Origin: a virus
Lineage: Duplodnaviria > Heunggongvirae > Uroviricota > Caudoviricetes
Virus record (IMG/VR): IMGVR_UViG_3300041405_000148
Location: 89,310-153,309 of that record
DNA: 64,000 nt
Reading direction: 5' to 3' (one strand)
Shown here: piece by piece, positions 40,898 to 56,055 of the stretch
How the letters are laid out: each line of letters starts with the position of its first letter
Position numbering within the stretch: the stretch's first letter is position 1
Program-made: the position numbers and the translations under genes
The notes under the pieces: model-generated
What the model was told of the DNA's origin: nothing
What the model saw: the letters and a program-made list of their open reading frames with translations, nothing else
The model's database searches: none

Positions 40898-40913
40898 AGA
40901 GGGGTAAAATATT

Positions 40914-41339
40914 ATGAGTAAATTTAATATTGGTGATGTCTTAGTTCGAGCTAAGTGGCATAACACTGATCCAAATTTGGTGGGTACTGTGAGTCAAGCT
41001 GATATTTATGGTGTTGGTGAGCTAATCATTACAGAAAGTAACACAAAGGACTACCCAGTTGGTTATGTTTATCTTTATTCACCAGATGCATGGAATCTTA
41101 AAGAAGAACAAGAAGAGGAAAAACTTCCAGAAATGCCTGATGAAGTGACTTACAGGGGTTCAGGACGTGAGTTGACAGTGGCACCTTATCATACCAGTCT
41201 AGGTGATATCTTTATTGGGATACGTACTGACGGAGGGTATGGGGTTCAGACTATGCACATGGATGCAGAAGATGTATTATCTCTTTGCCATGATCTTCGT
41301 CGCTACGCTATGGATGCTATCCGTAACCGTGATAAATAA
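40914..41339 (+). CDS. hypothetical protein, paralog of the 38253 gene (141 aa)
   Basis: See the 38253 entry. Immediately follows the macro-domain gene. Confidence 0.5.
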   Translation: MSKFNIGDVLVRAKWHNTDPNLVGTVSQADIYGVGELIITESNTKDYPVGYVYLYSPDAWNLKEEQEEEKLPEMPDEVTYRGSGRELTVAPYHTSLGDIFIGIRTDGGYGVQTMHMDAEDVLSLCHDLRRYAMDAIRNRDK

Positions 41340-41351
41340 GAGGGTACACAT

Positions 41352-41510
41352 ATGCAAGTAAGATATTACTACTGCAAGTCCTGTGGTTATGAAGAGTTTA
41401 ATATTTGGGCAGGTTATGCACGTACTGTTGGCAATGGTATGCTATTTTATTGCCCTGCTTGTAATAAAGAGAACTTTGTTGATGTTGAGGAGGAGGAGGA
41501 GGAGTAATGT
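41352..41510 (+). CDS. small Zn-ribbon protein (about 52 aa)
   Basis: CKSCG...CPACN with an acidic EEEEEE tail. Confidence 0.35.
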
Positions 41511-41839
41511 CTTATAGCAAGATGTACATTGCTGTATTGGATGAAGCACCGGATTACATGACTCCAACTCTGGTAGCACATTCTGTTCTTGCTGCTCACC
41601 TGAAATTTCAGGATGAAGAAATTTATAAAAAGTGGTTGACGGACTCATTCAGGAAGGTTACATTACGTGTCAACAGAAGAGAGTTCGACAAAATCAGAAG
41701 TACACTGGTTTGTCACGAAGGGCATGAAAACACGATCTGCAATGCAGAAGCAAGTTGCTTGGTTGTGATGCCAGTAGAAGCTGAATCTATTCCAAATGTT
41801 CTTAAATTTGGTAAACTGTGGAAACCAAAACAAGCTTAA
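41507..41839 (+). CDS. PTH2-like (peptidyl-tRNA hydrolase 2 family) protein
   Basis: KMYIAVLDEAPDYMTPTLVAHSVLAAH...W...FRKVTLRV...C..LVVMP matches the PTH2 pattern in length and motifs. Confidence 0.35.
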   Translation: MSYSKMYIAVLDEAPDYMTPTLVAHSVLAAHLKFQDEEIYKKWLTDSFRKVTLRVNRREFDKIRSTLVCHEGHENTICNAEASCLVVMPVEAESIPNVLKFGKLWKPKQA

Positions 41840-41850
41840 GGAGAAAATAA

Positions 41851-42252
41851 ATGACATTGGTAGAAAAACTTAAACAAGACCAACTGAATGCACGTAAAGA
41901 AGGTGACACTGCTAAAGCGTCTAACCTGACTTTCCTGCTGGGACAACTTTCACAGAAGAAGACACCAACTGACCAAGATGCAATTGACCTGATCCGTGCA
42001 ACAGTTAAATCCACTAAAGCTGCATATAAAGATGAACTGCCTACATCTGTATCATATGACATTCAGATCATGGAGAGTTATCTTCCAAGTGAATTGACAG
42101 ATGATGAAATTTATACTTTCCTGGATTCCGCTCGTGATTCAGGGGATAAGATCACTAAAGCTTATATGGGTAAAATCAATCTGTTTGCTAAAGCTCAGGG
42201 CAAGATTGTGAACAATGCCAATGCTTCTCTGATTCTCCAAGCTTATATTTAA
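41851..42252 (+). CDS. GatB/YqeY domain protein
   Basis: LKQDQLNARKEGD...LLGQL...YLPSELTDDEI...MGKINLFAKAQGK...ASLIL matches the YqeY family. Confidence 0.55.
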   Translation: MTLVEKLKQDQLNARKEGDTAKASNLTFLLGQLSQKKTPTDQDAIDLIRATVKSTKAAYKDELPTSVSYDIQIMESYLPSELTDDEIYTFLDSARDSGDKITKAYMGKINLFAKAQGKIVNNANASLILQAYI

Positions 42253-42255
42253 GAG

Positions 42256-42963
42256 GTGAAAATGAAAATTAAATTGTTAAATCTTGCTCCATATTGTGGT
42301 GTTGGCAACATTAAATTTCCTGTAATCGTAGAATGTTCTGGGGAATTTGATTTAAGCGGTGATACAGAAATTTTAGGTTCCGAAATCATTCGCCTCGGCG
42401 GGAATGAAGACGCTTTCATAGAGTCTCTCCCTTATACTGTTTATGAAGATTCGTTTGAACTAATTGAAACACAAAATAAAACCCACTGGACTCAGCTTGA
42501 AGCTGGTGATATCATTCTTGTAGAAGGTGTTGAACGCACAGTTGACGATATTGAGTATCTACGTATTTCTGGGACTGATCTTGAGGGTGATTATACTATT
42601 TCATTAAAAGAGGAAGACGTTGGAGATTTAGAGTGTACATGTGGGACATGGTTTAACACACAAAAACACCCTTGGTCTTTTGTTCGCAAAGCAGGGCAGA
42701 AAGCTGAAGAAGTGACTTCAGAAGAAGGTGAAGAGATCCCAAAAGATGTTTCTGAGGATTTTCTTTATATCGCAGATTATGGAAGCTCAGGAAGGATGTT
42801 ATCCGTTGAAAAACTTACGTTTGATAGCATCATGCTTCAAATGAGGTCTTATGAAAACAGATTTTTAGCTGGAGTAACTTTTACCCCAGAGCAGACAATT
42901 GAATTTGCAGAAGATCTACTTCGCCTTGCAAATCAAATGATTGAAGATGAAGGGGGTAAATAG
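42256..42963 (+). CDS. hypothetical protein (235 aa). Its N-terminal domain is paralogous to the 43733 gene.
   Basis: MKMKIKLLNLAPYCGVGNIKFPVIVE versus MIMKVLLLNSANYGDMQNVNFPVEVE. Confidence 0.5.
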   Translation: MKMKIKLLNLAPYCGVGNIKFPVIVECSGEFDLSGDTEILGSEIIRLGGNEDAFIESLPYTVYEDSFELIETQNKTHWTQLEAGDIILVEGVERTVDDIEYLRISGTDLEGDYTISLKEEDVGDLECTCGTWFNTQKHPWSFVRKAGQKAEEVTSEEGEEIPKDVSEDFLYIADYGSSGRMLSVEKLTFDSIMLQMRSYENRFLAGVTFTPEQTIEFAEDLLRLANQMIEDEGGK

Positions 42964-42965
42964 AG

Positions 42966-43211
42966 ATGATTTATTGGATTTACTGGGTCTTTGCCGTAAC
43001 TTCCTTTATTATCTTTTTCTCCTTACTTTATCAAGAGGAAGCAAGAAGTTCAAACGGTTGGGTGACAGGTGATGATGTTATGTTATTTCTCCTTTTTACC
43101 ATATTACCCACCATCTTTTGGCCTTTAGCGTGGTCGTTAATTATCTTGTATTTTTTGATAATCAAACCTTTGATTTACCTTAACAAGAAAATTTATGAGA
43201 AAAATCATTGA
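42966..43211 (+). CDS. small membrane protein (81 aa)
   Basis: Two or three TM helices. Confidence 0.45.
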   Translation: MIYWIYWVFAVTSFIIFFSLLYQEEARSSNGWVTGDDVMLFLLFTILPTIFWPLAWSLIILYFLIIKPLIYLNKKIYEKNH

Positions 43212-43220
43212 GGAGTAATT

Positions 43221-43436
43221 ATGAAAAAACTTGTTGTAATCTTAGCTCTGGTCATGATATCTTCTGTGTCCTCAGCGGCTGATGGTAAGCCAGACGTTAA
43301 AGAAATTTATGATGGTTGGGATGTTGATAAAATTTATGTTATGACTGACATCGAACGGGGTAAATGGTGTTATATTGTACGGGATACTGGCCGGGTTGGT
43401 TTGCAATGCTTCGACATCAAAGAAGGAGATAAATAA
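43221..43436 (+). CDS. small secreted protein (71 aa)
   Basis: Signal peptide MKKLVVILALVMISSVSSA. Confidence 0.45.
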   Translation: MKKLVVILALVMISSVSSAADGKPDVKEIYDGWDVDKIYVMTDIERGKWCYIVRDTGRVGLQCFDIKEGDK

Positions 43437-43672
43437 TGAGACTGAGAATGTATAAAGGTATTGATGAGAAGGATGGAGCTTTGTCTCTCTTTTTGGTATC
43501 AACTAAAGGTACAGCATGTTCCTTTTACTTAGGTGAGGGAGACCCTTGGGAAGACAAAGAAACTTTCCTTGACCTATATGGTATGGATTGTGATATGGTT
43601 CTGTTTGTTGACACATATGAATACATTGATTCAGTGAAAAATGCTGAACTTATTTGGGAAATTGTTGAATAA
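43436..43672 (+). CDS. hypothetical protein (78 aa)
   Basis: ORF. Confidence 0.4.
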   Translation: MRLRMYKGIDEKDGALSLFLVSTKGTACSFYLGEGDPWEDKETFLDLYGMDCDMVLFVDTYEYIDSVKNAELIWEIVE

Positions 43673-43732
43673 ATTTACTTGACTTAAGATTCTGATGAGG
43701 TATACTTACCTCATCAAGACAACAAAGAGGAA

Positions 43733-43978
43733 GTGATTATGAAAGTGTTACTGTTAAATTCTGCTAACTACGGTGATATGCAAAATGTTAATTTTCCTGT
43801 TGAAGTAGAGGCAACAGAAGCTGAAGCAACAGAAGCTGAAGCTCTAGGGTGCTACGTTAAAGGCTCTGAACTTCTTCGGGTAGGTGCAACACAAACAAAA
43901 GAAGACCCTTGGGATGAAGATTTCGATTACTACTTTAGCCACTTTCGTAATCAGTTTGTTAAAATAAATCAAGACTAA
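43733..43978 (+). CDS. hypothetical protein (81 aa) with an EATEAEATEAEA tandem repeat
   Basis: 12-bp tandem repeat gcaacagaagct at 43807-43842. Confidence 0.45.
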   Translation: MIMKVLLLNSANYGDMQNVNFPVEVEATEAEATEAEALGCYVKGSELLRVGATQTKEDPWDEDFDYYFSHFRNQFVKINQD

Positions 43979-44018
43979 TTAAAAACTTAGAAATTAAATC
44001 ATTATAGAGGAGTTACAC

Positions 44019-44993
44019 ATGACGCATCACTTCGGTTTTCCAATGCTGGACATTATCGTCCTTGTATCGGTTCTTATTTTATCAATTGGAGTTGACTTCC
44101 TAGGTCATAAAGATGGAAAAGAAATTGGGATTAAATCTGCTCTAGCTTGGTCAGGTTTTTGGATTGCACTAGCCTTAGGCTATTATGCCTTTGTGTGGGT
44201 TGAATATGGAAAAGAATTTGCATCTATGTTTCTTAGCGGTTATGTGCTTGAGAAATCATTGAGTGTTGATAACCTGGTTGTTTTTGCAGCTATCTTTGCA
44301 AGCTTTGGTATTCGTAGTACAGCACTGCAACATAAGATTCTGCTCTTGGGGATTGCAGGTGCAATTATTTTCCGAGGTATCTTTGTTGCACTAGGTACGG
44401 AATTGTTTCATCTTCACTGGTCAGTTCAGATCTTTTTTGGTATAATCGTAGCATGGTCTGCGTATGCAATCATTAAAGGTGGTGATGAAGAGGAAGAGGT
44501 CGATTATACAAAGCATTGGGCTGTTAAGTGGGTTAATAAGATTATCCCAGTAGGTGGCACTAACGGTGACAAGCTAATCACAAAAGTCGGTAAAAAATGG
44601 TATGCTACTCCTGCACTCGTTTGTGTGGCTGTTGTTGAGCTGACAGATATTATGTTCTCACTAGATAGTGTACCTGTGGTTATCTCAGTGACCCAAGAAC
44701 CTCTGCTAGTTTATTCAGCAATGCTGTTTGCAATCTTAGGTCTTCGTGCTCTGTATTTTGTACTCAGTGTTGCGATGAAGTACTTGGTTCATCTGGAAAA
44801 GGCTGTAGCTCTTGTTCTAGTGTTTGTTGGTGGTAAGATGATTTACCATGCAATGAATGAACAGTTCCACCTGAGCACCTTTGATATCTCTGTTAACGCA
44901 AGTTTGTATGTTGTACTGGGCACACTTGCAGCAGGCGTTATTGCGAGTCTGGTGTTTCCAAACAAGGAACCTGAAGAAGAAACTATCGTATAA
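44019..44993 (+). CDS. terC: TerC family integral membrane protein
   Basis: Multi-TM protein with the EKSLSVDNLVVF signature of the TerC family. Confidence 0.8.
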   Translation: MTHHFGFPMLDIIVLVSVLILSIGVDFLGHKDGKEIGIKSALAWSGFWIALALGYYAFVWVEYGKEFASMFLSGYVLEKSLSVDNLVVFAAIFASFGIRSTALQHKILLLGIAGAIIFRGIFVALGTELFHLHWSVQIFFGIIVAWSAYAIIKGGDEEEEVDYTKHWAVKWVNKIIPVGGTNGDKLITKVGKKWYATPALVCVAVVELTDIMFSLDSVPVVISVTQEPLLVYSAMLFAILGLRALYFVLSVAMKYLVHLEKAVALVLVFVGGKMIYHAMNEQFHLSTFDISVNASLYVVLGTLAAGVIASLVFPNKEPEEETIV

Positions 44994-45001
44994 TCAACAA
45001 A

Positions 45002-45024
45002 AGCCCCCATCAAGGGGCTTTTTA
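45002..45024 (+). terminator. rho-independent terminator
   Basis: agcccc-catcaa-ggggct followed by ttttt. Confidence 0.7.
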
Positions 45025-45042
45025 ATTGAGAAGGGGCTTGCA

Positions 45043-45216
45043 TGGCTAAGTATATTGAGGTAACATTGGTTGTAGAAATTCCAGATGTTGCAGAAGAAAA
45101 AGATATCAAAGATTTCGTAGATGTTCATTTTGCAGAATGCAATAGTATGCAGATGAACAATCCGATTCAGGATAATTATGAAATCGTAGAGCATTACTGG
45201 GAAATTTCCCAATAAT
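45043..45216 (+). CDS. small hypothetical protein (57 aa)
   Basis: ATG ORF (MAKYIEVTLVVEIPD...). Confidence 0.3.
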
Positions 45217-45243
45217 TAGATTCTTAGTATAAGAGGAGCTAAA

Positions 45244-45447
45244 ATGAAAAAGTTTTTTAACATTTTGTGGGTGATTTATACATGCGTTGCTGAGATTGTT
45301 GGTACATTTATCATTATCATGTTTATTCTTTCTTTGTTTGGTCATGGTAAGTTTGAGGTTGGTCACGGTAATTGGCAGCAATGTTTCGGTGATTGCCAAA
45401 AAGTTGAACAAAACTCTGTTAATCCTGTAAAAGAAGAGGTAAAATAA
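45244..45447 (+). CDS. small membrane protein (67 aa)
   Basis: TM helix. Confidence 0.4.
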   Translation: MKKFFNILWVIYTCVAEIVGTFIIIMFILSLFGHGKFEVGHGNWQQCFGDCQKVEQNSVNPVKEEVK

Positions 45448-45938
45448 TGACTCAAGAATATGTTAAATGTCTTAGTAAATTTTCTGGTGTAACTGTGGGT
45501 GAAGTTTATCCTATTGTTCAGCGTGAAGAGAATTCTTTTTGTCTAATCAATGATGCTGGCAAACAAGATGTTTGGTGGCTAGCTGATGGTGAGTTTGAAT
45601 TAGTTGATGGGCCTGAAGAAGTTAAGGAAGAGAGTAAAGCCACTCGTGAAATGAAGTTCTCAACTAAAGAAGGATCTGCTGTTGTCCATTATAAATCAGG
45701 TCAGACTTTCCATATCAGTTATCTGACACATATGGTAGTGGCAGGAAGTAGAGTTCAGGTAACACGTGAGTATACTCAGGATGGTATAGAGTTTTCTCAA
45801 ACTGCATACATCCCTTTTGAAAAGTTCGGTAAGGTTATTTGTCAAGCTTATAATGGAGAGTTAGAAATAACACTTTCCAAAGATGGAAAACTGAGTTATC
45901 CTACAGTTGTAGAAAAGAAAGAAATGTTCTTTAACTAA
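45447..45938 (+). CDS. hypothetical protein (163 aa)
   Basis: ORF. Confidence 0.5.
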   Translation: MTQEYVKCLSKFSGVTVGEVYPIVQREENSFCLINDAGKQDVWWLADGEFELVDGPEEVKEESKATREMKFSTKEGSAVVHYKSGQTFHISYLTHMVVAGSRVQVTREYTQDGIEFSQTAYIPFEKFGKVICQAYNGELEITLSKDGKLSYPTVVEKKEMFFN

Positions 45939-45963
45939 TTAAATAAACTAAGAGGAAATAAAC

Positions 45964-46671
45964 ATGACTAAACTATCACTTGAAAAACGTACCGAAAATG
46001 TTAAACTATCTCTGGAGAAAGCTGGTGTTCAGCGTAAAGATATCTGTGTCCGTGTAGGTCTGGCACTTGATAAATCTGGTTCAGCTGAAATCTTTTATCA
46101 CAACGGTCAGTTTGAAGAGTTGGTTGACCGACTGCTGCCAGTCAGCGCAAATATGGATGATGATGGCACGATTGACACTTGGCTGTTCCACAATGAATCT
46201 ATGGAAGTTGGTCCAGCTACACCTAAAAATTATGGTAGCTTTATCTCCAAAGAAGTTATGCAGGGTAAATACCGCAGTGATTGGGGTGGCACAGAATATG
46301 CACCAGTTATGAAAGATATTCATCACTTTTACTTTGGTTATGAGCAGAAGAGAAGTTTCTTTGGTTTCGGTGGTGGCAAGAAAGCTGTAACTGATTCAAA
46401 TATCCCTGCTTTGGTGTTCTTCATCACAGATGGCGCTAACAGCGACCATTCTGAGACCATCAAACTGCTTGACAGCATTAAAGATGAGCCTGTATACTGG
46501 ATGACAGTTGGTGTTGGCCGGGAAGACCAGTTTACTTTCCTGAAACAGATTGCTTCCCGTTATGATAATGTTGGTTTTGTTAATTTCAGTAATCTGAACA
46601 TCAGTGATGATGAAATGTATAATGCCATTCTGGATGGTGAACTGGCTGAGTGGATTAATAAAGTTTGCTAA
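45964..46671 (+). CDS. vWA domain protein (ter-associated, TerY-like)
   Basis: MIDAS residues: LDKSGSA (DxSxS), TEYAP (T), FITDGANSD (DG). Confidence 0.6.
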   Translation: MTKLSLEKRTENVKLSLEKAGVQRKDICVRVGLALDKSGSAEIFYHNGQFEELVDRLLPVSANMDDDGTIDTWLFHNESMEVGPATPKNYGSFISKEVMQGKYRSDWGGTEYAPVMKDIHHFYFGYEQKRSFFGFGGGKKAVTDSNIPALVFFITDGANSDHSETIKLLDSIKDEPVYWMTVGVGREDQFTFLKQIASRYDNVGFVNFSNLNISDDEMYNAILDGELAEWINKVC

Positions 46672-46958
46672 GGAGCACTAATATGACTAAAGAAGAATAC
46701 CTAGAGCAACTGAAGGTTGGTGATACCCTTACACGCTTCTTTCATGGCGCAGGATTTGTTACCCAAGGTGAAGAAATGGAGGTTGTTCATCTAACAGATT
46801 CTCGCATCTGGTTAGAAGAAAAAATGGAAAATCAGGTTGACTATAAAGCAGATAGTGTTTATAGTTATGACAGAAAAACAGGTAAACAATATACTGATCA
46901 ATTTAGCTTTGGTATGTATCACACTATTGAACTGCCAAACTCTAAAGCCCCCGACTAA
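46665..46958 (+). CDS. hypothetical protein (97 aa)
   Basis: ORF. Confidence 0.4.
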   Translation: MLRSTNMTKEEYLEQLKVGDTLTRFFHGAGFVTQGEEMEVVHLTDSRIWLEEKMENQVDYKADSVYSYDRKTGKQYTDQFSFGMYHTIELPNSKAPD

Positions 46959-46987
46959 TAATTTTTTAACAAAAGAGGAAATAAAAT

Positions 46988-47569
46988 ATGTCACTTAATC
47001 TGCAAAAAGGTTCTTCCCTGAAACTGACTAAAGATGATGGTAAAACTGCCCTAAATCGTATTCGTGTAGAGCTGTCTTGGAACCCTAACGAAGGATCTTC
47101 GCAGTATTCGTTTGACTTGGATGTAATCGGTGCAGTTTGTAAGAATGAGAATCTGCAAGCTGTTTCTGGTGAACATGTTGCTTTCTTTAATCAGAAGAAT
47201 ACTGCGGCTATCCAGGTATCCCCTGATAATACAACTGGTGCTGGCGATGGTGTAGATGAGTTCCTGGATATTACTCTGAACAATGTTCCGGTAGAAGGTG
47301 ACCGAATCCCAGTCCTGGTATGTATTTATGGTGCTCGTGGCAAGAATCAGAGTTTTTCTCAGGTAGATGGTGCAACAGTTGTGCTGCGTGATCTGGATAA
47401 CGGTAAAGTAGTTGGTTCTTGTAACATCTCTGAGAAAGGCTCATCTACAGATGAATCTCTGCTGGTAGGTGTTTTTGAGAAGCAGTCTGATGGCTCTTTT
47501 GTTTACAATCAGGTGAACGAGTTTTACAATAAGAGTTTTGAAGAGTGGATTGGTGTTTTCACTAACTAA
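46988..47569 (+). CDS. terD: TerD-domain protein
   Basis: MSLNLQKGSSLKLTKD...RVELSWNP...DLDVIGAV...GDG. This is the TerD/CABP fold signature. Confidence 0.75.
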   Translation: MSLNLQKGSSLKLTKDDGKTALNRIRVELSWNPNEGSSQYSFDLDVIGAVCKNENLQAVSGEHVAFFNQKNTAAIQVSPDNTTGAGDGVDEFLDITLNNVPVEGDRIPVLVCIYGARGKNQSFSQVDGATVVLRDLDNGKVVGSCNISEKGSSTDESLLVGVFEKQSDGSFVYNQVNEFYNKSFEEWIGVFTN

Positions 47570-47587
47570 GAGCAAATAAATAGATTA

Positions 47588-47614
47588 AGGCCCTTGTTTA
47601 GGAGGGCCTGTTTT
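47588..47614 (+). terminator. rho-independent terminator
   Basis: aggccc-loop-gggcct followed by gtttt. Confidence 0.5.
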
Positions 47615-47639
47615 AACAAAGATAAAGGAGATACTTAAC

Positions 47640-48230
47640 ATGGCAATTACTTTGGAAAAAGGTTCTAAACTCTCTCTGGATAAGTTCCAGGCATCAGACC
47701 TTAAAGTCCTTCGTGTAGAAATGACGTGGGATGCACCAGAAACCACAGGTTCAAAGTTCAAAACTTATGACTACGATTTGGATGTTATTGCTTTCATTAT
47801 TGATGAGAACAAAAAAGCTGTAAATAACTATAAACATTTTTGCTTCTTTGGACAGCAAGTCACCCCAGCAATCGAGAGTTCTGGTGATGACCTGAATGGT
47901 GAAGATGGTGGTGAATCCCTTCTGATCACACTGGATAATGTGCCAAAGAATGGTGTACAGATCCCTATCATCGTTGACTTACACAAGGCTAAAGAGCGTA
48001 AACAAAATCTGTCTCAGATGAAATCAGGTAACCTGCGTATCCTGAACCATGACACAGATGAGCTACTGGCTGAAGTAAACATGAGTCAGTTTGCAAGCAA
48101 CGAAACATCTTTCCTGTTTGCTTTCATCAACCGTACTGCAACAGGTTTTGAGGTAGAAAGTGCTCCAACAGGGTTTGATAAAAACATTCAGGATTGGGTT
48201 GATCTTTATGGAATTGACTTGAGCAAGTAA
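47640..48230 (+). CDS. terD: TerD-domain protein (second copy)
   Basis: MAITLEKGSKLSLDKF...RVEMTWD...DYDLDVIAF...GEDGG. Confidence 0.75.
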   Translation: MAITLEKGSKLSLDKFQASDLKVLRVEMTWDAPETTGSKFKTYDYDLDVIAFIIDENKKAVNNYKHFCFFGQQVTPAIESSGDDLNGEDGGESLLITLDNVPKNGVQIPIIVDLHKAKERKQNLSQMKSGNLRILNHDTDELLAEVNMSQFASNETSFLFAFINRTATGFEVESAPTGFDKNIQDWVDLYGIDLSK

Positions 48231-48250
48231 TCTTTAAGTGGTAATATCAA

Positions 48251-48273
48251 TGGGTGACAATAAGTCACCCATA
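48251..48273 (+). promoter_or_regulatory. perfect hairpin atgggtgac-aataa-gtcacccat (terminator or regulatory stem)
   Basis: 9-bp perfect stem. The following T-tract is weak. Confidence 0.35.
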
Positions 48274-48290
48274 TTAATTTCAGGAGTCTT

Positions 48291-49178
48291 ATGAGCACCG
48301 ATTATAAAAACCTTTTTAATACAAAGAAAGATTATTCTAATCTGTTTTCTAATAAGGAAAATACCCAATCACAACCTAAGCAGGAAAGAAACATGGCATA
48401 TAAAAATTTATTTGATAATGTTGTCAATGAAACAAAACCTGCAAGGGTTCAAACAACATTACCTCAAAAAGTTGTTGACCCACGAGTTGCTGATATACAA
48501 GCAATTGACCCTAAGATCAGCACACATGCAGTCATCGAATGGCTTGAAGCTTTTGATGACAACATGAAAAAGTTAACCCAAACTAATCATGGACTCTCTC
48601 AAAGAGAACTGGATTTGGCTATGGAATTCACTGATGGAAGACTCTGTGTCCAAGAGCTTTTTAATCAGATCAAGGCAACAGTTGCAACGCTGAAAGGGCC
48701 AGAAAAGAAAACAGGGTTTCTATCAAAGCTCTTTAACTCAGATCAAGAGTTTAAATTAAGTCAAGATTTGATCACACAAGTTATTCAGACAATTAGAAAA
48801 CTATTAGAAGATTTCAAAAATAAGTCTAAATATAATAATAGTATGTTTATTAAATCTGAGATGCGTAGGATCGAATCAAACATTTTTGATTTGAAAAGTG
48901 AATTGGAGTGTGCTAGAGTAGCTGCAACTTACTTAGTCAATCAAGATGATTTTAAAGGTGCAGCAAGACTTGAAAAGGTTAAGCAACTCTCAGGGTTAGT
49001 GAATGTCTCAGAGTTGCAATTAAAAAATACTTACAATCTTCTTGAGAAAGATATGGAAGCATATGAGAACTTAAAAGACGTGACAGTACCTTTTTTGTAT
49101 GCTAAGATCCAAGGATTAATGAGTAGTACTTTAGATTCTGAAGCACTCAATGTTATTAACGATATAAATAAACTCTGA
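48291..49178 (+). CDS. TelA-like (toxic anion resistance) family candidate (295 aa)
   Basis: All-helical protein with N-terminal Y(K/S)NLF repeats. Position is between terD and the HAD/PRTase genes. Sequence match to TelA not verified. Confidence 0.3.
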   Translation: MSTDYKNLFNTKKDYSNLFSNKENTQSQPKQERNMAYKNLFDNVVNETKPARVQTTLPQKVVDPRVADIQAIDPKISTHAVIEWLEAFDDNMKKLTQTNHGLSQRELDLAMEFTDGRLCVQELFNQIKATVATLKGPEKKTGFLSKLFNSDQEFKLSQDLITQVIQTIRKLLEDFKNKSKYNNSMFIKSEMRRIESNIFDLKSELECARVAATYLVNQDDFKGAARLEKVKQLSGLVNVSELQLKNTYNLLEKDMEAYENLKDVTVPFLYAKIQGLMSSTLDSEALNVINDINKL

Positions 49179-49189
49179 GGAGAGACACT

Positions 49190-50269
49190 ATGTCATACGG
49201 CAACCTTTTTACAACAGAAACAAAAACTGAATCACAGGCTACTAAGCCAACTAGTTTTGAACAGTCAGTTAAATCACTCCCTGTCCTTAAGGATGCAGAA
49301 GGTAAAGTTTACCCAATGGAGTTGAAAGACATTCAGAATTTTGGTATTGTTAAAAACTCAAAACAATCTGAAATCAATAACCAAATTCTGTCAAAGACAT
49401 TGGTCGCAGATAGTGGTGTAATGGCCCAGGGTTTTACTCAGATCATGGCGCTTTCCCAAAAAGTAGATATTGGATCTCTCTCTGATGGTAAAGTTGGCCT
49501 GTTTAAATCTATTCGTAATAAGTTTATTGATCGAAAAGCTGAGGTTAAAGCACAGTTTACAACTGTTCGGAGTCAGATCACAACCATTGCTTCGGAACTA
49601 AAGAACAACATTGTAGAGATGCAGAAAGAAGGTCAGTGGCTTGACCAAATGTACAAAGTCAATCTTGAAGAAGTACGTATGTGGGAACAAAACAAGGTTT
49701 TGGTTAATGAAGCCTTTACTACAGCAGAAGAATATTTGAAACATCTTGTTGACAATGGAGCACCAATAGAGCAAATTGAAGAGACACGGATGAAAGTTAA
49801 TGCGTTGAGCAAGCAAAGTGATAAAGTTAATAAAATGCATCAGCTTAGTGCTATTGCAGCGCCTGAGATCAGGATGATGCAGGTAACAAATTTCAACAAT
49901 ATTAATAAGTTTAATGACATTATTGAATTAACTATCCCATATTGGGAAAAGAAAATGTCACTTGCACTAAATGCTGAGAATCAGCGCAAGCAGATCGCAC
50001 AAGCAAAAATTATGGATGACTTCACTAATGATTTAATCAAAGAAACTGCTAAACAGGTTGGACAAAACATGGTAGAGTCAGCTAAAGCAAACCAGCGTGG
50101 TATTGCTGATGTAGATGTAATGGTAGAGGCAACAAACGTGATCATCAACTCTATTAAAGAGGTTGTTGAGATTGATAAAGAAGGGAATAATACCCGTAAA
50201 GAGAACGCCAAGAAGATTGAAAAATCGTTGGTTGACATGGAAGATACTCTACGGTCAGTACTTTCTTAA
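49190..50269 (+). CDS. TelA-like protein (359 aa)
   Basis: Size and helical character fit TelA/KlaA. N-terminal YGNLF motif shared with the upstream gene. Sits in ter context. Confidence 0.4.
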   Translation: MSYGNLFTTETKTESQATKPTSFEQSVKSLPVLKDAEGKVYPMELKDIQNFGIVKNSKQSEINNQILSKTLVADSGVMAQGFTQIMALSQKVDIGSLSDGKVGLFKSIRNKFIDRKAEVKAQFTTVRSQITTIASELKNNIVEMQKEGQWLDQMYKVNLEEVRMWEQNKVLVNEAFTTAEEYLKHLVDNGAPIEQIEETRMKVNALSKQSDKVNKMHQLSAIAAPEIRMMQVTNFNNINKFNDIIELTIPYWEKKMSLALNAENQRKQIAQAKIMDDFTNDLIKETAKQVGQNMVESAKANQRGIADVDVMVEATNVIINSIKEVVEIDKEGNNTRKENAKKIEKSLVDMEDTLRSVLS

Positions 50270-50289
50270 AAATACTTAGGAGAACTAAA

Positions 50290-50937
50290 ATGATTTTATC
50301 TTTTGATGTATGGAATACACTGCTGTCGGCTAACCCTGAGTTTAAAACTGCACGTATTGACGCTATTGTTTCTGAAACAGGTCTACCTAAGATTGCTGTA
50401 GCCACAAAGCTGCGTGACACCAAACGTGTACTCGACTTCATTCAAGAAGATACTGGCAAAGCTTTTACATCTTTATTTTGTTGGAAGCTGTTCTTGAAAC
50501 ATGTGAATTATGAAGGAGATATTGATGAAATGGGGAGGACTTTACTGGAAATCTCAAATACTTTGTTTGTAAGGTATCCTCCATCTTTTGATGTTGAGTT
50601 GGTAAAGGTAATTCGTAAAATGAAGAAGGGCATGTCACACATTGATGAGATAGTACTAGTGAGCAATACTAACTTCGTACCAGGTAATCTACTTTGGACA
50701 ACTTGTTTTGAACACCTAGATTTGTTTGATAGTGCATTCTTTTCAGATCAGTGGGGTGTTGGTAAACCAAGTGAAGAAGCTTTCGCTCGTGGTTGGCCTT
50801 TAATTTGTGGTCGGAAAGTGATTCATGTAGGGGACACTATTGTCACTGATGGTGCTTGTACAAAGTATGGTGCAGAATTTATCTTGGTAAAAGATCCATC
50901 AGACACACTTAAACGCTTGACAGAGTTTACGGTCTAA
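50290..50937 (+). CDS. HAD-superfamily hydrolase (ter-linked phosphatase)
   Basis: Motif I FDVWNTL (the second Asp is replaced by Trp), motif II VLVSNT, motif III GKP, motif IV GDTIVTD. Confidence 0.55.
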   Translation: MILSFDVWNTLLSANPEFKTARIDAIVSETGLPKIAVATKLRDTKRVLDFIQEDTGKAFTSLFCWKLFLKHVNYEGDIDEMGRTLLEISNTLFVRYPPSFDVELVKVIRKMKKGMSHIDEIVLVSNTNFVPGNLLWTTCFEHLDLFDSAFFSDQWGVGKPSEEAFARGWPLICGRKVIHVGDTIVTDGACTKYGAEFILVKDPSDTLKRLTEFTV

Positions 50938-50976
50938 CGTAACCTTGCTGCAACTTAACTACACAGGAATTAAATA

Positions 50977-51810
50977 ATGAATCAAACTACACAATTTGCT
51001 GTACACTACTTTGATAATCTTGAAGATATGTCATTTTGTCCAAAAGATTACTCCTTCCTAAAGTTCGGTAGCGACAAAGTGGCTAAAAAGTTTGGGTATG
51101 AGTTGGCAGAAGCTTTCTTTCAAGAACATAAAAGTCGATTGGTTGCGGAGCAATTTGTTGTGATCCCTTCTCCGTATAATTATGTTAAGAATGCTGCAAC
51201 CATTATGTCAGAGCACTTTGTAGACCGTTTAAATCATCTTGTAGTAAGTGCGGGAGGTTTGCATGTAGAATGGAGTACTATTAACCGTAAGATGTCTTAC
51301 ATTAAAGATTATGGCTTCCTGTCAGCAGACGAAAGGAAGAAACTTATTGATGGGGACACTTTTCATGTGAATAAAGGCTATCTGGAAGGTAAAAACCTTA
51401 TTTTCATTGACGATGTAAACATCACTGGTACACATGAAAGGAAGTTAGAAGAGATTCTGGATGAAAGTCAAGTTTTTAATGATAGATTTTTCTTATATTA
51501 TGGTAAATTTGTTGATAGTGGTAAAGCTGGCGCTGACATTGAATCTAAAATCAACTTTGCAGGTATTCAAGATTTAGAGGATTTTGTAAAGTTAACCAAG
51601 GAACCTAATCACCAAATTATTGTAAGACCTATAAAATTCTTGTTGTCAAGGACTCCAAATAAATTTGAACAGTTTGTAGATTTGGTGGATGAAGAATTCT
51701 TATGTAAACTTTATTATGGTGCTATTGCAGAAGGTTATTATAACATTCCTGATTATAAGTTAAACCTGAATTATTTAAATTGGTACATCCAGAAAGAAGA
51801 AAACAAATAA
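50977..51810 (+). CDS. phosphoribosyltransferase (PRTase) domain protein
   Basis: PRPP-binding loop NLIFIDDVNITGT. Confidence 0.6.
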   Translation: MNQTTQFAVHYFDNLEDMSFCPKDYSFLKFGSDKVAKKFGYELAEAFFQEHKSRLVAEQFVVIPSPYNYVKNAATIMSEHFVDRLNHLVVSAGGLHVEWSTINRKMSYIKDYGFLSADERKKLIDGDTFHVNKGYLEGKNLIFIDDVNITGTHERKLEEILDESQVFNDRFFLYYGKFVDSGKAGADIESKINFAGIQDLEDFVKLTKEPNHQIIVRPIKFLLSRTPNKFEQFVDLVDEEFLCKLYYGAIAEGYYNIPDYKLNLNYLNWYIQKEENK

Positions 51811-51834
51811 TTGTCATTTAAAAGAGGAAAAATA

Positions 51835-52755
51835 ATGAACGAACAAGCTCAAGCAATTAAGAAAGTAGTGAAGTATGTAGGACTTGCAATTCTGGCGATT
51901 GTAGCTATTATCACTGCATTAAATTCTTACACTGTTGTCCAAGATGGCACAGTCAAGACTCAGACTTTCCTAGGTAAAGTAAACCCAGAGCCTGTTAAAC
52001 CTGGTTTCCATCTGGTTAACCCGTTTGCAAGCTTTGACACCTTCAGCACCAAAGACATTGCTCTGAAGTTTGATAAGCTGCAAGTGCCAAGCCAGGACAA
52101 GTTTAAGTCAAGTGTTGACATGACTGTTATGCTGAAGTTTGATGGCAATAAAGCACCTATCAACCGCATCAATGCAGGCACACAAGACCAAGCCTTAGAA
52201 AAATACGTAACTGAGAAACTGCTTTCAACTGTACGTGAGTTTGGTAAGTCAGTGCCAAAAGCACAAGACCTGTTTAATGCCGATATTCAGGCTAAACTAC
52301 AGACTCAGGTTCAGCAAGAGATTGAAGAGTATGCACGTCCATATGGTTACACAGTAAGTCAGATTTTCCTGCAAGACATCACTCTGCCGGAAGTTATTAT
52401 GACTCAGGTAACTAACACCAAGATCCGTGAAGAGCAGGTTAACGCAGCTAAAGCAGAACTGGCACGTGTGCAACAGGAAACACAGCAAAGCGTAGCTAAG
52501 GCAGTTGCAGACCGTGAATCTCGTGCTAATGAAGCACAGGCTAATGAGCGTGATGCAGATGCTAAGCTTTATGCCGCACAGAAAGAAGCTGAGGCTAACG
52601 CCGTACTGCAACGCACAATTACCCCAGAGATGATTCGTTGGAAAGAGCTGGAAGTGTCAATGAAACGTGCTGAGAAATATCAAGGTGGTGTTCCAAGTAC
52701 AGTAATTGGTGCTGACTACGAAGGTAAACTAATTATGGATACCCGGTCTAAATAA
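51835..52755 (+). CDS. SPFH/band-7 (HflC/prohibitin-like) membrane protein
   Basis: N-terminal TM, then YTVVQDGTVKTQTFLGKV...PGFHLVNPF..., followed by a long coiled-coil tail. The ATG at 51835 follows an AAGAGGAAAAA ribosome-binding site. Confidence 0.7.
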   Translation: MNEQAQAIKKVVKYVGLAILAIVAIITALNSYTVVQDGTVKTQTFLGKVNPEPVKPGFHLVNPFASFDTFSTKDIALKFDKLQVPSQDKFKSSVDMTVMLKFDGNKAPINRINAGTQDQALEKYVTEKLLSTVREFGKSVPKAQDLFNADIQAKLQTQVQQEIEEYARPYGYTVSQIFLQDITLPEVIMTQVTNTKIREEQVNAAKAELARVQQETQQSVAKAVADRESRANEAQANERDADAKLYAAQKEAEANAVLQRTITPEMIRWKELEVSMKRAEKYQGGVPSTVIGADYEGKLIMDTRSK

Positions 52756-52764
52756 GGAGTTAAT

Positions 52765-53118
52765 ATGAATCGAATCGTAATCAATGGTCAGGTTATTAAC
52801 GGAGATTTAGTTGGTGGCAAATCCATCAATATCTCAAGTAATGGTGATAAGGTCATTATCAACGGCTCTGAAGTCTTCACCACAACAAGCAAAACCATTT
52901 ACATCACTATTGAAGGAAATGTAGAAGGTAACGTAGAAACTGTCTCTGGAGATGTTGAGGTTTATGGCAACGTTCTGCGAGGTATTTCAACAACTTCTGG
53001 GGATGTTGATGTGGACGGTGATGTAGGGGAAGGTGTAAAAACAGTATCTGGTGATGTTTCTGCCAGCTCAATTAAGGGTAATGTTAAAACCGTTTCCGGT
53101 GATATCCGAACAAAGTAA
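52765..53118 (+). CDS. beta-helix repeat protein (bactofilin/DUF4097-like)
   Basis: Five or more repeats of (T)VSGDV...G(N/D)V with a period of about 18-20 aa. Confidence 0.35.
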   Translation: MNRIVINGQVINGDLVGGKSINISSNGDKVIINGSEVFTTTSKTIYITIEGNVEGNVETVSGDVEVYGNVLRGISTTSGDVDVDGDVGEGVKTVSGDVSASSIKGNVKTVSGDIRTK

Positions 53119-53180
53119 AATTGTTTTAAATGAAAGGGGCAGATGCCCCTTTTTGTTTTATAGAGTAAAAGGAGATTTAT

Positions 53181-53672
53181 TTGATCAAGAAGATAACATT
53201 GGCGGTATTGTTCGGCCTTATGATGGGAAATGCCCAAGCAAAACCAAAAGAAAGACCAAAGACAGTTCACATATGTACGTCTTCAGACACACCCCAGAAT
53301 GTTTTAAGCTGTGCCATGTACTTCGAAGCGAGGAGTGAAAAAGAAAAGGGAATGGAGTATGTAGGTAATGTGATCCTTAATCGGAGGAGTCATGATCAAT
53401 ACCCATCTAAAATGAGTAAGGTGGTATACCAAAAGCACCAATTCTCTTATGTTCGTAAGAGGTTGAAAATTCAGGATAAAGACAGTTGGAAGTTAGCTCA
53501 AAATGTAGCAAGAAAACTTTTATCAATGTCAGATGAAAAAAGACGCTTAACAGATCCAAGCAAAGGGGCTATATTCTTCACAAGAAAAGATATCAAACGT
53601 TCTTGGGCTAAGCATTACCAAAGAACAGCGTCTTATGGCAAACATGTTTTTTATCGGGAGAGAATTAAATGA
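53181..53672 (+). CDS. SleB-like cell-wall hydrolase with signal peptide
   Basis: Signal peptide, then AMYFEARSE...VGNVILNR...YPSKM, the Hydrolase_2 (SleB) signature. Confidence 0.6.
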   Translation: MIKKITLAVLFGLMMGNAQAKPKERPKTVHICTSSDTPQNVLSCAMYFEARSEKEKGMEYVGNVILNRRSHDQYPSKMSKVVYQKHQFSYVRKRLKIQDKDSWKLAQNVARKLLSMSDEKRRLTDPSKGAIFFTRKDIKRSWAKHYQRTASYGKHVFYRERIK

Positions 53673-53914
53673 TTTTATTTTATCTACGAAATCGATGGAC
53701 TGGAGAAGTGGTTACATTTGACTCTGGTTATAATGAAGAAGGTAGTTGGGTAGAGTTGGATTATGGTTATTCAAATCCTTACTTTAACAGAGAAGACATT
53801 CTTAAGAAAATTGCTTCAGGTGAAACTAAGAGTACTTGGTCTGTTGAAATTTCCAACTGCATCCAAAAAGATGCAGAAGAGGGTCTTTTAGAGGTTATCG
53901 AAGTAGAACTTTAA
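53669..53914 (+). CDS. hypothetical protein (81 aa)
   Basis: ORF. Confidence 0.4.
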   Translation: MILFYLRNRWTGEVVTFDSGYNEEGSWVELDYGYSNPYFNREDILKKIASGETKSTWSVEISNCIQKDAEEGLLEVIEVEL

Positions 53915-54144
53915 CAAGGGGAAAATAAATGAATAAATTTTGGTGAGGAGTTAAAAGTGAAAAGAAAGGAAATTAAAGAATTCTTAAAGGCTTTTGAATT
54001 ATGGAAGTCTAAAGGTTCACCTGAGATGATCCCTGTTGTTACGGGCAAAGGCCCTTTTAGTTCTAAATTAACTCTTGCATCTAACTTCAGATTGTTTCAT
54101 CTTTATGATCCTAAATATGTGAGACTTGCAGAGGAGATTGTTGA

Positions 54145-54408
54145 ATGAAACCAATAGAACCTGGCTGCAAGGCTATGATTATTGGATTAGTTGTCCACAC
54201 TGAAGATAACTATAAAATTGTAGATGTTGTTGGTAAGGAATGGTATGAGGATGGTGAGGGTTGGCTTTGTGAAGGAGATATAATTTCACAAGAGGGTTTT
54301 GTTGGGATCTCCGCTTATAATGAAAGGAATTTAATACGTATTGATGACCCATTAAATGAAGATAACCCATACCAAGTAAAAGATAAGGAGAAAAGTGATG
54401 CAACATAA
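54145..54408 (+). CDS. hypothetical protein (87 aa)
   Basis: ORF. Confidence 0.4.
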   Translation: MKPIEPGCKAMIIGLVVHTEDNYKIVDVVGKEWYEDGEGWLCEGDIISQEGFVGISAYNERNLIRIDDPLNEDNPYQVKDKEKSDAT

Positions 54409-54560
54409 AGTCTTCCTAACTAAATCTGATGTTCAGGATGTTGTTGTAGGGGAACTGATCGGCATAGGTTATCCTTATATCCACAATGTGTACCGTATAT
54501 CAAATGAAGGTACTTTAAATTTTATTTACCATTTTACTAAATCAAAAGAAGGAGAATCAC

Positions 54561-54953
54561 ATGAAAAAACTTATTGCAGCTGTTGCAATCGTCCTGTCAG
54601 TGTGTGCTAGTGCTCAAGCACAGAATCTGGATATCAAGAAATGCGACAGTGTAGTTGTCGCTGTAAAGCACCCTGACACCCCAAGCCAAGAGATTATCCA
54701 GCTTTCTCCTGTGAAAAAGAAATCTGTAATGATCCTTGACTCAGGTGAGCAATTTCAGGTAGTCTATGAGGGTGGCAGGATCGCTTCACCAGTCTTAACT
54801 GAGGTAGCACCAGGTATTAAATCTAACCTTGGTAAGCTTCCGAATGGGGAACAGGCAATGTTCATCAAACGTGATGGTGATTACCAAGTAACAGGTGATG
54901 GTGTACGATACCTTCTGTTTAAAGATTGTGTTGACGCAACAAGCCTAATTTGA
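54561..54953 (+). CDS. secreted protein (130 aa)
   Basis: Signal peptide MKKLIAAVAIVLSVCASAQA. Confidence 0.5.
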   Translation: MKKLIAAVAIVLSVCASAQAQNLDIKKCDSVVVAVKHPDTPSQEIIQLSPVKKKSVMILDSGEQFQVVYEGGRIASPVLTEVAPGIKSNLGKLPNGEQAMFIKRDGDYQVTGDGVRYLLFKDCVDATSLI

Positions 54954-54992
54954 TAAAATCTTAGTACACAAACAAATAAGAGGAATTACTAA

Positions 54993-55559
54993 ATGAAGAA
55001 ACTGTTTCTGGCAAGTGTGGTTGTAGGTCTCGCTGTCCTTGTAGCAGGTTGTGATGATGAGGATGAACAAAAACGGACTCAGCAAGTGTATTCAGAGCAG
55101 CAAGTCCAACAGAATTATGATCAACAACAGCAAGCCCAGCAGGCTCCTGCAGTGATGCAACAGCCTCCACAAACTGTTGTGGTGCAAGGTTCTAATGGTG
55201 GTCATTCTGGCCCGTCTATGAGTGATGTTATTGTAGGATCAGCTTTAGGCAGCGTTGCAGGAACTGTAGTGGGCAATCATCTGTCAGGTAATACTGGCAA
55301 TAATAACAATGGAGGTTATCGTGAAGTCAATCGTACTACAGTCATTAATAACAACACTCGCTCTGGTAGCTATTCTCAGCCTAGCCGTAGCATTGTTAGC
55401 AAACCTGTGTCTCGAAGCCTTTCTACAACAAAGTCTGTGAGTACATTTAGCTCCTCTCGACCATCTAGTTCTTATAGTTCACCTTCACGGTCTTACAGTA
55501 GCAAGAGTTATAGTCGAAGCAGTAGCAGCTTTCGGTCTAGTTCATCACGTCGTCGATAA
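54993..55559 (+). CDS. lipoprotein with a glycine-zipper segment and a Ser/Arg-rich tail
   Basis: Lipobox LVAGC. Q-rich linker. VIVGSALGSVAGTVVGNHLSG glycine zipper. C-terminal SRS/SSS repeats. Confidence 0.6.
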   Translation: MKKLFLASVVVGLAVLVAGCDDEDEQKRTQQVYSEQQVQQNYDQQQQAQQAPAVMQQPPQTVVVQGSNGGHSGPSMSDVIVGSALGSVAGTVVGNHLSGNTGNNNNGGYREVNRTTVINNNTRSGSYSQPSRSIVSKPVSRSLSTTKSVSTFSSSRPSSSYSSPSRSYSSKSYSRSSSSFRSSSSRRR

Positions 55560-55845
55560 TTGGAGGATTTCATGTTAAAATCAGGAATGAAGTTAAGATG
55601 TTCAGGTCTAGGTGGGAACCCGGATTTTAAACCAGGTACTGTTTACACAGTTATTGAAGTGGTTGATGAAAATGAAAGTCCTTATTTAGTTACAATTCGT
55701 GATGATGGTGGATTTTTGTGCCATTGTTTAATTTCACCAACACACCGATGCCCTCATGCAGGGGAGTGGGAAATTATAAGTTGACTTTTACTTGGAGGGA
55801 TTCTACAATCCCTCTTGTTAAAAGAAATCACATTTTGGAGTTACG

Positions 55846-56046: not shown

Positions 56047-56055
56047 GGGGAGACA

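Follow-up and report, generated by a model that had tools for sequence, protein, structure and literature searches.

A Ter gene cluster lies at positions 44019-52755 of the 64,000-nucleotide stretch analysed here (hereafter the window), which is part of the record IMGVR_UViG_3300041405_000148 of a large, virulent-type tailed phage. From profile searches, motifs and gene neighbourhoods, the cluster can be identified securely as a phage copy of the bacterial Ter module with a cassette of a phosphoribosyltransferase (PRTase_3) and a HAD hydrolase. Judged by gene content, this phage set mirrors a discrete operon of Bacteroidota, and this correspondence is among the points that the present analysis adds to the published descriptions of phage Ter systems. 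We tentatively propose, with a probability of roughly 0.45, that the cluster conditions the envelope and the cation balance of the infected cell, which would thereby tolerate membrane stress and shut out colicins and competing phages.

The cluster comprises nine substantial open reading frames (ORFs), all in the same orientation. Pfam matches far above chance were obtained for seven of the nine, eight of the nine domain assignments made in an earlier sequence-only reading hold, and all nine proteins were assigned to existing PHROG families. TerC, two TerD-domain proteins, TelA, and a von Willebrand factor A (vWA) protein are encoded together within 6.3 kb on one strand. The genes, with the small ORFs among and after them, are as follows.

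44019-44993, + strand: TerC/Alx-family integral membrane protein with about eight hydrophobic segments (Pfam PF03741, 1.4e-39; phrog_7180)
45042-45215, 45244-45447 (one hydrophobic segment) and 45447-45938, + strand: three small filler ORFs with weak or unnamed PHROG matches
45964-46671, + strand: stand-alone vWA protein of the TerF C-terminal type (Pfam PF10138, 2.3e-37)
46665-46958, + strand: ORF of 97 residues with no family match
46988-47569, + strand: TerD-domain protein 1, TerD1 (Pfam PF02342, 2.6e-28)
47640-48230, + strand: TerD-domain protein 2, TerD2 (Pfam PF02342, 1.5e-33)
48291-49178, + strand: TelA-neighbour protein, TelA homology unproven (no Pfam match)
49190-50269, + strand: TelA, toxic anion resistance family (Pfam PF05816, 6.2e-39; phrog_5890)
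50290-50937, + strand: PRTase_3-linked HAD-IA hydrolase (PDB 2om6 matched by the family profile, 9e-20; phrog_14393)
50977-51810, + strand: PRTase_3, a ComF-like type I phosphoribosyltransferase (Pfam PF15610, 4.2e-53)
51811-52755, + strand: SPFH/Band_7 membrane protein (Pfam PF01145, 5.2e-17; phrog_200)
52765-53118, + strand: Gly/Val-rich repeat protein of 117 residues (phrog_3163)

The earlier assignments of TerC, a vWA protein with a full metal ion-dependent adhesion site (MIDAS), two TerD proteins, TelA, PRTase, and SPFH are confirmed by the Pfam profile searches, and every motif quoted for them was found at the expected place. The HAD assignment stands as well. No Pfam match better than E 0.16 was obtained for the window HAD, yet a profile built from 14 members of its family finds solved HAD-IA structures in the PDB, with 2om6 at the top (9e-20), followed by 2hoq, 1x42, HDHD3, YihX, and haloacid dehalogenases. 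The description of the set as complete, contiguous and co-oriented holds in part. The genes are co-oriented, but the four small ORFs listed above are interspersed among them. Completeness is relative, since no TerB was detected by the Pfam scan of the 25 ORFs at 40391-57041, and the larger bacterial biosynthetic arm is represented by one PRTase and one HAD.

The TerC protein scores 303 bits against the NCBIfam model TIGR03718 (TerC/Alx; cut-off, 246.4) and contains the motif EKSLSVDNLVVF. In the vWA protein, the MIDAS is intact (D36-x-S38-x-S40, T110, and D156). TerD1 matches the solved Klebsiella TerD (PDB 2kxt/2kxv) at 3e-17, and its acidic loop DNTTGAGDGVDE aligns with GDNRTGEGDGDDE of the Klebsiella protein in the pattern GDNxTGxGDGxDE; the loop of TerD2 reads GDDLNGEDGGE. 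Sequence searches found no solved-structure relative of the vWA and TelA proteins. The terZABCDEF genes of R478 (IncHI2) and E. coli O157 share with the phage set TerC, TerD-family proteins, and the TerF type of vWA domain. The TerD paralogues of the classical ter systems are TerZ, TerA, TerD, TerE, and TerF, whereas the phage has two. The phage set also differs in having no TerB in the scanned ORFs, in its vWA domain, which is stand-alone and not fused to TerD, and in the inclusion of TelA, which in classical systems is part of another operon.

The PRTase scores 180.8 bits against PF15610 (cut-off, 28.7). Its phosphoribosyl pyrophosphate (PRPP) loop LIFIDDVNITGT is intact, and D145, D146, T150, G151, and T152 are invariant in 26 sequences. 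No solved-structure relative was found by sequence. The AlphaFold2 model (predicted local distance difference test score, pLDDT, of 91.6) has a type I PRTase core with an extra C-terminal helical domain, and its Foldseek matches in the PDB are HGXPRT, ComF, PyrR, and APRT, with a probability of 1.0.

In the window, the HAD gene ends 39 bases 5' of the PRTase gene. Bacterial loci were collected from a scan of one genome per species, in which at least 579 had a PRTase_3 relative; the best 80 were analysed, using hidden Markov models (HMMs) built from phage and Hymenobacter proteins. HAD is directly 5' of PRTase in all 80 loci, and TerD, TelA, and TerC lie within 10 kb of the pair in 63, 60, and 53 of them, respectively. 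In Bacteroidota (Pedobacter, Mucilaginibacter, Chitinophagaceae, and Arcticibacter), the genes form a tight co-directional array, (TerC)-HAD-PRTase_3-TerD-TerD-TelA-X-(TerC), and the order HAD-PRTase_3-TerD-TerD-TelA-X-TerC was checked with Pfam in locus L042. This operon (for example, in Arcticibacter, Pedobacter, and Mucilaginibacter) has the same families as the phage cluster, with two TerD, one TelA, and one TerC; its HAD overlaps or abuts the PRTase and has the invariant Trp at the position two residues after the nucleophile (nucleophile+2) that is also found in the phage enzyme. It differs from the phage cluster in gene order and in a 320-residue protein X after TelA, which is unrelated to the phage TelA-neighbour, and vWA was seen in only 8 of the 80 bacterial loci at the HMM sensitivity used. 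The Bacteroidota operon reportedly represents one of the forms of Ter-dependent system that Anantharaman, Iyer and Aravind described in 2012. On a Hymenobacter plasmid, the pair stands beside three TerD and two vWA genes, together with genes annotated as a PP2C-phosphatase and an InaA-family kinase. Protein X (L042, 13133-14095, and its equivalents) is conserved at about 320 residues between TelA and TerC, belongs to no Pfam family, and seems to be a so far undescribed component of the Bacteroidota operon.

Viral sequences show a similar linkage. Among the IMG/VR viral loci, HAD and PRTase are adjacent in 14 of 14, with Ter genes within 10 kb in 9 of the 14, and compact TelA-vWA-TerC-HAD-PRTase-TerD clusters occur on contigs of 197 and 350 kb. 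In the phage collection, tblastn found the PRTase in 157 records, HAD in 156, and TelA in 136, the last including Rak2/GAP32-like jumbo phages, Lactobacillus phages, phiPsa374-like phages, and Lak megaphages. The phage groups bearing the pair (Escherichia, Klebsiella, Rhizobium, Brevundimonas, and XaC1) also give TerD or TelA matches, while many TelA-bearing groups have no PRTase match; this co-occurrence is based on tblastn counts by organism name and is not a per-genome census. The nested pattern in phages and the bacterial operons together support a functional coupling of the pair and Ter. The suggestion that PRTase and HAD form a Ter-linked arm in bacteria is likewise borne out by the neighbourhood counts in the 80 loci. 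Going by gene order, we regard the HAD-PRTase pair as a fixed two-gene cassette, and the phage groups in which it occurs give Ter matches as well. Four unannotated records labelled 'Campylobacter phage' (MG065639, MG065645, MG065656, and MG065689; about 146 kb) have PRTase and HAD matches with the same identities as those of phi92-like coliphages and with similar lengths, and their 'Campylobacter' label is probably wrong.

The pair might instead act independently of Ter, in a nucleotide, nicotinamide adenine dinucleotide (NAD), or modified-base pathway, with its proximity to Ter genes reflecting a crowded early region. Such a pathway would supply a nucleotide, newly made or salvaged, to the DNA/RNA metabolism of the phage or to the modification of DNA. 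In the Xanthomonas phage XaC1 and the Rhizobium phage TM3_3_6, it lies beside genes for thymidine kinase, RNA ligase, nicotinamide mononucleotide (NMN) adenylyltransferase/Nudix, PurA, and macro-domain proteins and is far from TerD and TelA; in a Brevundimonas jumbo phage, it is far from TelA. Moreover, a macro-domain gene directly follows the PRTase in phage KMB37, Rhizobiaceae have the pair alone, and glycosyltransferase genes lie downstream of the cluster in the window. However, at least 60 of the 80 bacterial loci hold the pair and TerD-TerD-TelA in one operon that contains no DNA-metabolism genes, and the TerD or TelA matches in the pair-holding phage groups also speak for the link with Ter. 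The predicted fold is that of a type I PRTase of the HGPRT/ComF kind, whereas nicotinamide and nicotinate PRTases have a different fold. We consider such an independent pathway decidedly unlikely. The KMB37 gene that directly follows the PRTase is annotated as macro-domain/YmdB, and an 'ADP-ribose binding protein' of XaC1 is encoded 8 kb from its PRTase.

In a neighbour-joining tree of the PRTases (no support values), the phage enzymes form their own branch apart from those of Bacteroidota, to which they are 34-37% identical. The stand-alone HAD-PRTase_3 pairs of Rhizobiaceae (L009 of Rhizobium johnstonii pRL10, L011-L018, L020, and L022-L024) are plasmid-borne in pRL10 and CP171850 and have no Ter genes within 10 kb; their PRTases are 39-51% identical to the phage PRTase and are nested in the phage branch. 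Two further pairs inside the phage branch, again with no Ter genes nearby, are on JAEZZU010000022.1 (L019, 13 kb) and JBDKGV010000038.1 (L021, 19 kb). These contigs, from metagenome-assembled genome bins of Proteobacteria and Fibrobacterota, are probably misbinned phage contigs.

No PRTase relative was found on enterobacterial plasmids at E <= 1e-3; thus, the arm was not taken from the plasmid ter islands of the hosts, and capture from enterobacterial ter plasmids is ruled out. The same result bears on a possible counter-defence role, in which the phage proteins would imitate a host abortive-infection system of the Ter/TerY type or another that acts at the membrane, or would titrate or forestall it, for example through sequestration of its signal molecule or its Ca2+ signal. 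Bacterial ter operons inhibit phages, and ter islands are frequent in Klebsiella and E. coli hosts (PMC8193136, PMC12054061). However, the plasmid ter islands of these hosts are without the PRTase arm, what the phage carries is no single decoy but a full set that looks functional, its catalytic and metal sites being intact, and the same set occurs in phages of Rhizobium, Caulobacterales, and Xanthomonas. A counter-defence role is therefore, in our estimate, very unlikely.

The window HAD has the motifs DVWNT (I, residues 6-10), SNTN (II), GKP (III), and GDTIVTD (IV), and D6, S125, K159, D182, and D187 are invariant in 14 aligned family members. The DVWNT motif, in which the second Asp is replaced by Trp, had been singled out as unusual. 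The motif is real, but a peculiarity of this phage is ruled out by its invariance across the phage and bacterial family: Trp8, at nucleophile+2, is present in 14 of 14 members from phages, Rhizobium, Hymenobacter, and metagenomes, and the solved archaeal HAD 2om6 has an identical FDVWNTLL. HAD phosphomonoesterases use the Asp at nucleophile+2 as the general acid/base; dehalogenases, phosphonatase, and P-type ATPases have another residue there. The second Asp by which HAD phosphatases are recognised is not present in the window enzyme, which on its motifs is a HAD-fold enzyme that should not be filed as a canonical phosphomonoesterase. In a scheme that we hold to be unlikely (below), the invariant Trp at the general-acid position, from phages to Bacteroidota, would point to a different chemistry or to a substrate with a good leaving group. 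Against TIGR02252, the window HAD scores 27.5 bits, under the cut-off of 155; the bacterial HAD of locus L042 passes HAD_2, Hydrolase_like, and Hydrolase. The window HAD is 25-31% identical to other phage HADs, which are themselves 31-52% identical to one another, and closer relatives (59-70%) were found in metagenomes only. By these identities, it represents a divergent sub-lineage.

Two TelA-like helical proteins sharing N-terminal Y-x-N-L-F repeats had been claimed. The assignment of TelA holds, but the second protein, the TelA-neighbour, is only weakly TelA-like. Its profile aligned with TelA at an hhalign probability of 4%, and its fold matches to phage TelA proteins are weak, so that a clear paralogy with TelA is not established. 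An equivalence with protein X of the bacterial operon was also rejected (hhalign probability, 0.2%). The repeats are indeed common to both N-termini, with three copies in the TelA-neighbour and one, YGNLF, in TelA. These are the only four occurrences in real ORFs of the window. In the TelA-neighbour, the repeats (D/A-Y-x-N-L-F, at 48303-48413) are within residues 1-57, which are predicted to be disordered, and the low AlphaFold2 confidence of this region is consistent with disorder; a bundle of long helices follows. The repeats are invariant in 15 homologues, down to 40% identity, and are not found in the bacterial TelA proteins of Bacteroidota-type operons. A literature search on TelA structure found nothing relevant. 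From its distribution, Y-x-N-L-F is a reasonable candidate for a docking motif common to TelA and its neighbour.

These features can be combined into a more specific scheme. The Ter-linked HAD would not be a simple nucleotide phosphatase, PRTase_3 and HAD would make a non-canonical ribosyl ligand of TerD/TelA, and the Y-x-N-L-F repeats would dock a phage-specific submembrane layer. In this scheme, the repeats of the FBKp34/XaC1 lineage would provide multivalent docking, with TerD, vWA, or a host protein as the common partner. We regard the combination as unlikely; if true, it would make the cluster a compact, genetically tractable Ter system.

The DNA polymerase I of the window shares 76.7% identity with its counterpart in Klebsiella phage FBKp34 (vB_KpM_FBKp34, phiKp34; MW394390; Stephanstirmvirinae), the only phage record above 60%. 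At the DNA level, no matches of the cluster beyond short 75% patches were found in phage records, and the window thus represents a new species-level or genus-level relative. The identities to FBKp34 are 73% for TerC, 79% for vWA, 76% for TerD1, 73% for TerD2, 67% for the TelA-neighbour, 81% for TelA (also in KP13-16), 59% for PRTase, and 30% for HAD. The Ter proteins (67-81%) are as conserved as the replication core (primase-helicase, 75%; polymerase, 77%), which fits vertical inheritance under selection. On this comparison, we take the cluster to have passed vertically within the phi92/rV5-like phages (Stephanstirmvirinae), in their FBKp34-like branch.

FBKp34 and KP13-16 have the same genes for TerC, TerF-type vWA, two TerD, TelA-neighbour, TelA, HAD, and PRTase_3. 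In FBKp34, they are annotated and located upstream of the primase-helicase and DNA polymerase I genes, and the TelA-neighbour has three Y-x-N-L/I-F repeats. FBKp34 differs in a cell-wall hydrolase gene and four small genes between TelA and HAD-PRTase, whereas in the window the pair directly follows TelA. The window adds the SPFH gene and the 117-residue ORF after the PRTase, and the small ORFs between TerC and vWA differ. By tblastn against the phage collection, close TerD relatives are limited to FBKp34, KP13-16, and the 349-kb phage XaC1, and TerD2 is 72-73% identical to the proteins of these three. XaC1 has the same TerC-vWA-TerD-TerD-TelA-neighbour-TelA block, with identities to the window of 72-74% (the two TerD), 57% (TelA-neighbour), 63% (TelA), and only 30% (vWA); it differs in that its PRTase-HAD pair is about 166 kb from the Ter genes. 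Among the phi92/rV5-like coliphages (Justusliebigvirus, Phapecoctavirus), KMB37 (Justusliebigvirus, Stephanstirmvirinae; phi92-related) has annotated HAD-PRTase, TerC, TelA, vWA, and TerD genes within about 10 kb, but its gene order is different, the macro-domain gene directly follows its PRTase, its TerD is 30% identical to the window TerD1 over 145 residues, and its TelA is 17% identical in alignment. No TelA-neighbour homologue was found in the KMB37 locus or among the phi92-like records. Comparable Ter systems of jumbo phages (Acinetobacter ME3, Caulobacter, Rak2/GAP32-like, and XaC1) are described in PMC7824862; the window is from a lineage of about 150 kb and not from a jumbo phage. The three small ORFs at 45042-45938 have no tblastn match in the FBKp34, KMB37, or XaC1 loci and can be placed outside the conserved module. 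The 97-residue ORF at 46665-46958 has no match in the same relatives; in FBKp34, its place is taken by no more than a short spacer that contains a consensus promoter.

Conservation equal to that of the replication proteins would also be expected if the module served the phage's own replication, with TerC, TerD, and vWA adjusting Mn2+/Zn2+/Ca2+ and envelope integrity, for example for enzyme metals, membrane potential, or lysis timing. The TerC score exceeds the threshold of the TerC/Alx 'metal homeostasis' subfamily, the TerD acidic loop and the vWA MIDAS are kept, a terC mutant of K. pneumoniae lost Zn and Mn resistance (PMC12054061), and the window, FBKp34, and KMB37 all have a cell-wall hydrolase gene close to the cluster. 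On the other hand, many large phages are without these genes, which makes the role accessory, and many TelA-bearing groups are without a PRTase match. No metal-dependent regulator or riboswitch was found in the window, where Rfam gave no RNA family at any position; no tRNA was found either. A riboswitch 5' of TerC, of the yybP-ykoY type known for bacterial TerC/Alx genes, was rejected on the same search. This role in replication is somewhat unlikely, in our view.

We return to the proposal that the cluster protects the envelope of the infected cell. It draws on the phage-inhibition and colicin phenotypes of bacterial ter genes and on a published phage hypothesis (PMC7824862). The R478 ter cluster was reported to confer phage inhibition and colicin resistance, and when terC was deleted in K. 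pneumoniae, phage plaques became larger and resistance to Zn/Mn fell (PMC12054061). Tellurite resistance is a further reported phenotype of the classical ter genes. HAD, PRTase, vWA, and TerD have kept their catalytic and metal-binding motifs. In the proposed sequence of events, host-type promoters in the early/middle region would drive the genes in about three transcription units. PRTase_3 would couple a base to PRPP, and from the product HAD would generate a small ribosylated ligand. The soluble cation- or ligand-sensing components would be TerD and vWA, TelA and its neighbour would form a helical layer beneath the membrane, and TerC would alter the cation flux across the inner membrane. The infected envelope would then withstand membrane and ion stress and keep out competing phages and pore-forming colicins until lysis.

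Several observations weigh against this proposal. The HAD has no acid/base Asp, and the 'nucleotide to nucleoside' step is therefore uncertain. In XaC1, the Brevundimonas jumbo phage, and the Rhizobium phage, a long distance separates the pair from the Ter genes, so that physical linkage in phages is not universal, and in XaC1 and the Rhizobium phage the pair is among annotated nucleotide/NAD genes. The timing of expression is read solely from consensus matches. PADLOC gave only insignificant matches to defence systems, and the cluster is thus not a known anti-phage defence system. Our literature search found no experiment on any phage-encoded Ter gene, and the role of Ter in infection was called unknown for phiPsa374, for which terC, terD, terF, and telA are listed (PMC9796965).

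The novelty implied by the sequence-only reading does not survive comparison with the literature. The same cluster is conserved and annotated in GenBank in relatives, and that of FBKp34 has been published and discussed (PMC8386662). Superinfection exclusion is also in print, together with the phage PRTase/HAD arm: a comparative paper of 2021 dealt with phage Ter systems that include PRTase and HAD enzymes, reported abbreviated Ter operons in Caulobacter jumbo phages, and put forward a use of Ter against superinfecting phages by jumbo 'and certain other related smaller tailed phages' (PMC7824862). In phi92, gp172, gp173, and gp178 were named as TerD/tellurite-resistance proteins (PMC4690881). 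The question of what Ter systems do dates from the 1990s. Since a compact phage version has presumably retained only genes that it needs, such versions make attractive models, but the window opens this question no further than the cultured phages FBKp34, phi92, and rV5, in which the same genes are already annotated. The comparative by-products (the operon match, the fixed HAD-PRTase cassette, the HAD family without an acid/base residue, and the TelA/neighbour motif) sharpen the choice of experiments and are not a discovery in themselves.

The set had also been described as one unit between terminators. The following signals were found around and inside it.

43679-43706, + strand: candidate sigma-70-like promoter TTGACT-16-TATACT upstream of ORF 43733-43978 and TerC (consensus scan, 10 of 12 matches; pattern only)
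44999-45022: GC-rich hairpin with a T run directly 3' of TerC, terminator-like on both strands
48250-48272, + strand: terminator-like hairpin 3' of TerD2
53132-53153, + strand: strong intrinsic-terminator-like hairpin GAAAGGGGCAGATGCCCCTTTT with a T run, at the end of the TelA-to-SPFH unit

A single operon bounded by terminators is ruled out by the internal hairpins at 44999-45022 and 48250-48272, and the closing terminator lies beyond a further ORF. The FBKp34 record has a terminator annotated at the same position, after TerD2. The hairpin at 53132-53153 closes a unit of the TelA-neighbour, TelA, HAD, PRTase, SPFH, and 117-residue ORF. The cluster appears, from this arrangement, to consist of three transcription units rather than one. 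FBKp34 has a consensus TTGACT-17-TATAAT 5' of the TerD pair; the sigma-70-like hexamers of the window and FBKp34, which are pattern matches only, suggest transcription by the host RNA polymerase.

The start of the SPFH gene abuts the PRTase stop codon, and both genes end at the common terminator. SPFH had been counted as part of the set, but it has no conserved association with Ter genes in relatives, being absent from the FBKp34, KMB37, and XaC1 clusters. It shows 75-76% nucleotide identity to Pseudotevenvirus and Tequintavirus genes, which are there in unrelated contexts, and its nearest genes include those of Citrobacter T4-like phages and the Salmonella T5-like phage PHB06. Membership in the Ter module is ruled out by this absence and by the T4-like/T5-like affinity. 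The identity to genes of unrelated virulent phages points to a recent transfer between phage families, and we take SPFH to be an accessory gene of separate origin, predicted to be co-transcribed with PRTase.

The cluster had been placed in a replication region, and the region does include replication and nucleotide-metabolism genes; a helicase, a MazG-like protein, glycosyltransferases, the primase-helicase, and DNA polymerase I are encoded in the surroundings. Further away, ORF 24182-25060 (- strand) has an HNH endonuclease PHROG as its best match (3.6e-50), and its N-terminal part also matches the 'decoy of host sigma70' and 'Srd anti-sigma factor' families. The 168-residue protein encoded at 40391-40897 belongs to phrog_335 ('phosphatase') and has no Pfam match. 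ORFs 42256-42963 and 43733-43978 share an N-terminal module (phrog_13367), and their translations start 'KIKLLNLAPYCGVGNIKFPVIVE' and 'KVLLLNSANYGDMQNVNFPVEVE', a likeness that suggests duplication of a small domain immediately 5' of TerC. ORF 54993-55559 encodes a Ser-rich predicted lipoprotein with a weak DUF2076 match (phrog_21570). Its homologue in KMB37 is one small ORF 3' of TerC, and the lipoprotein gene may travel with the Ter genes.

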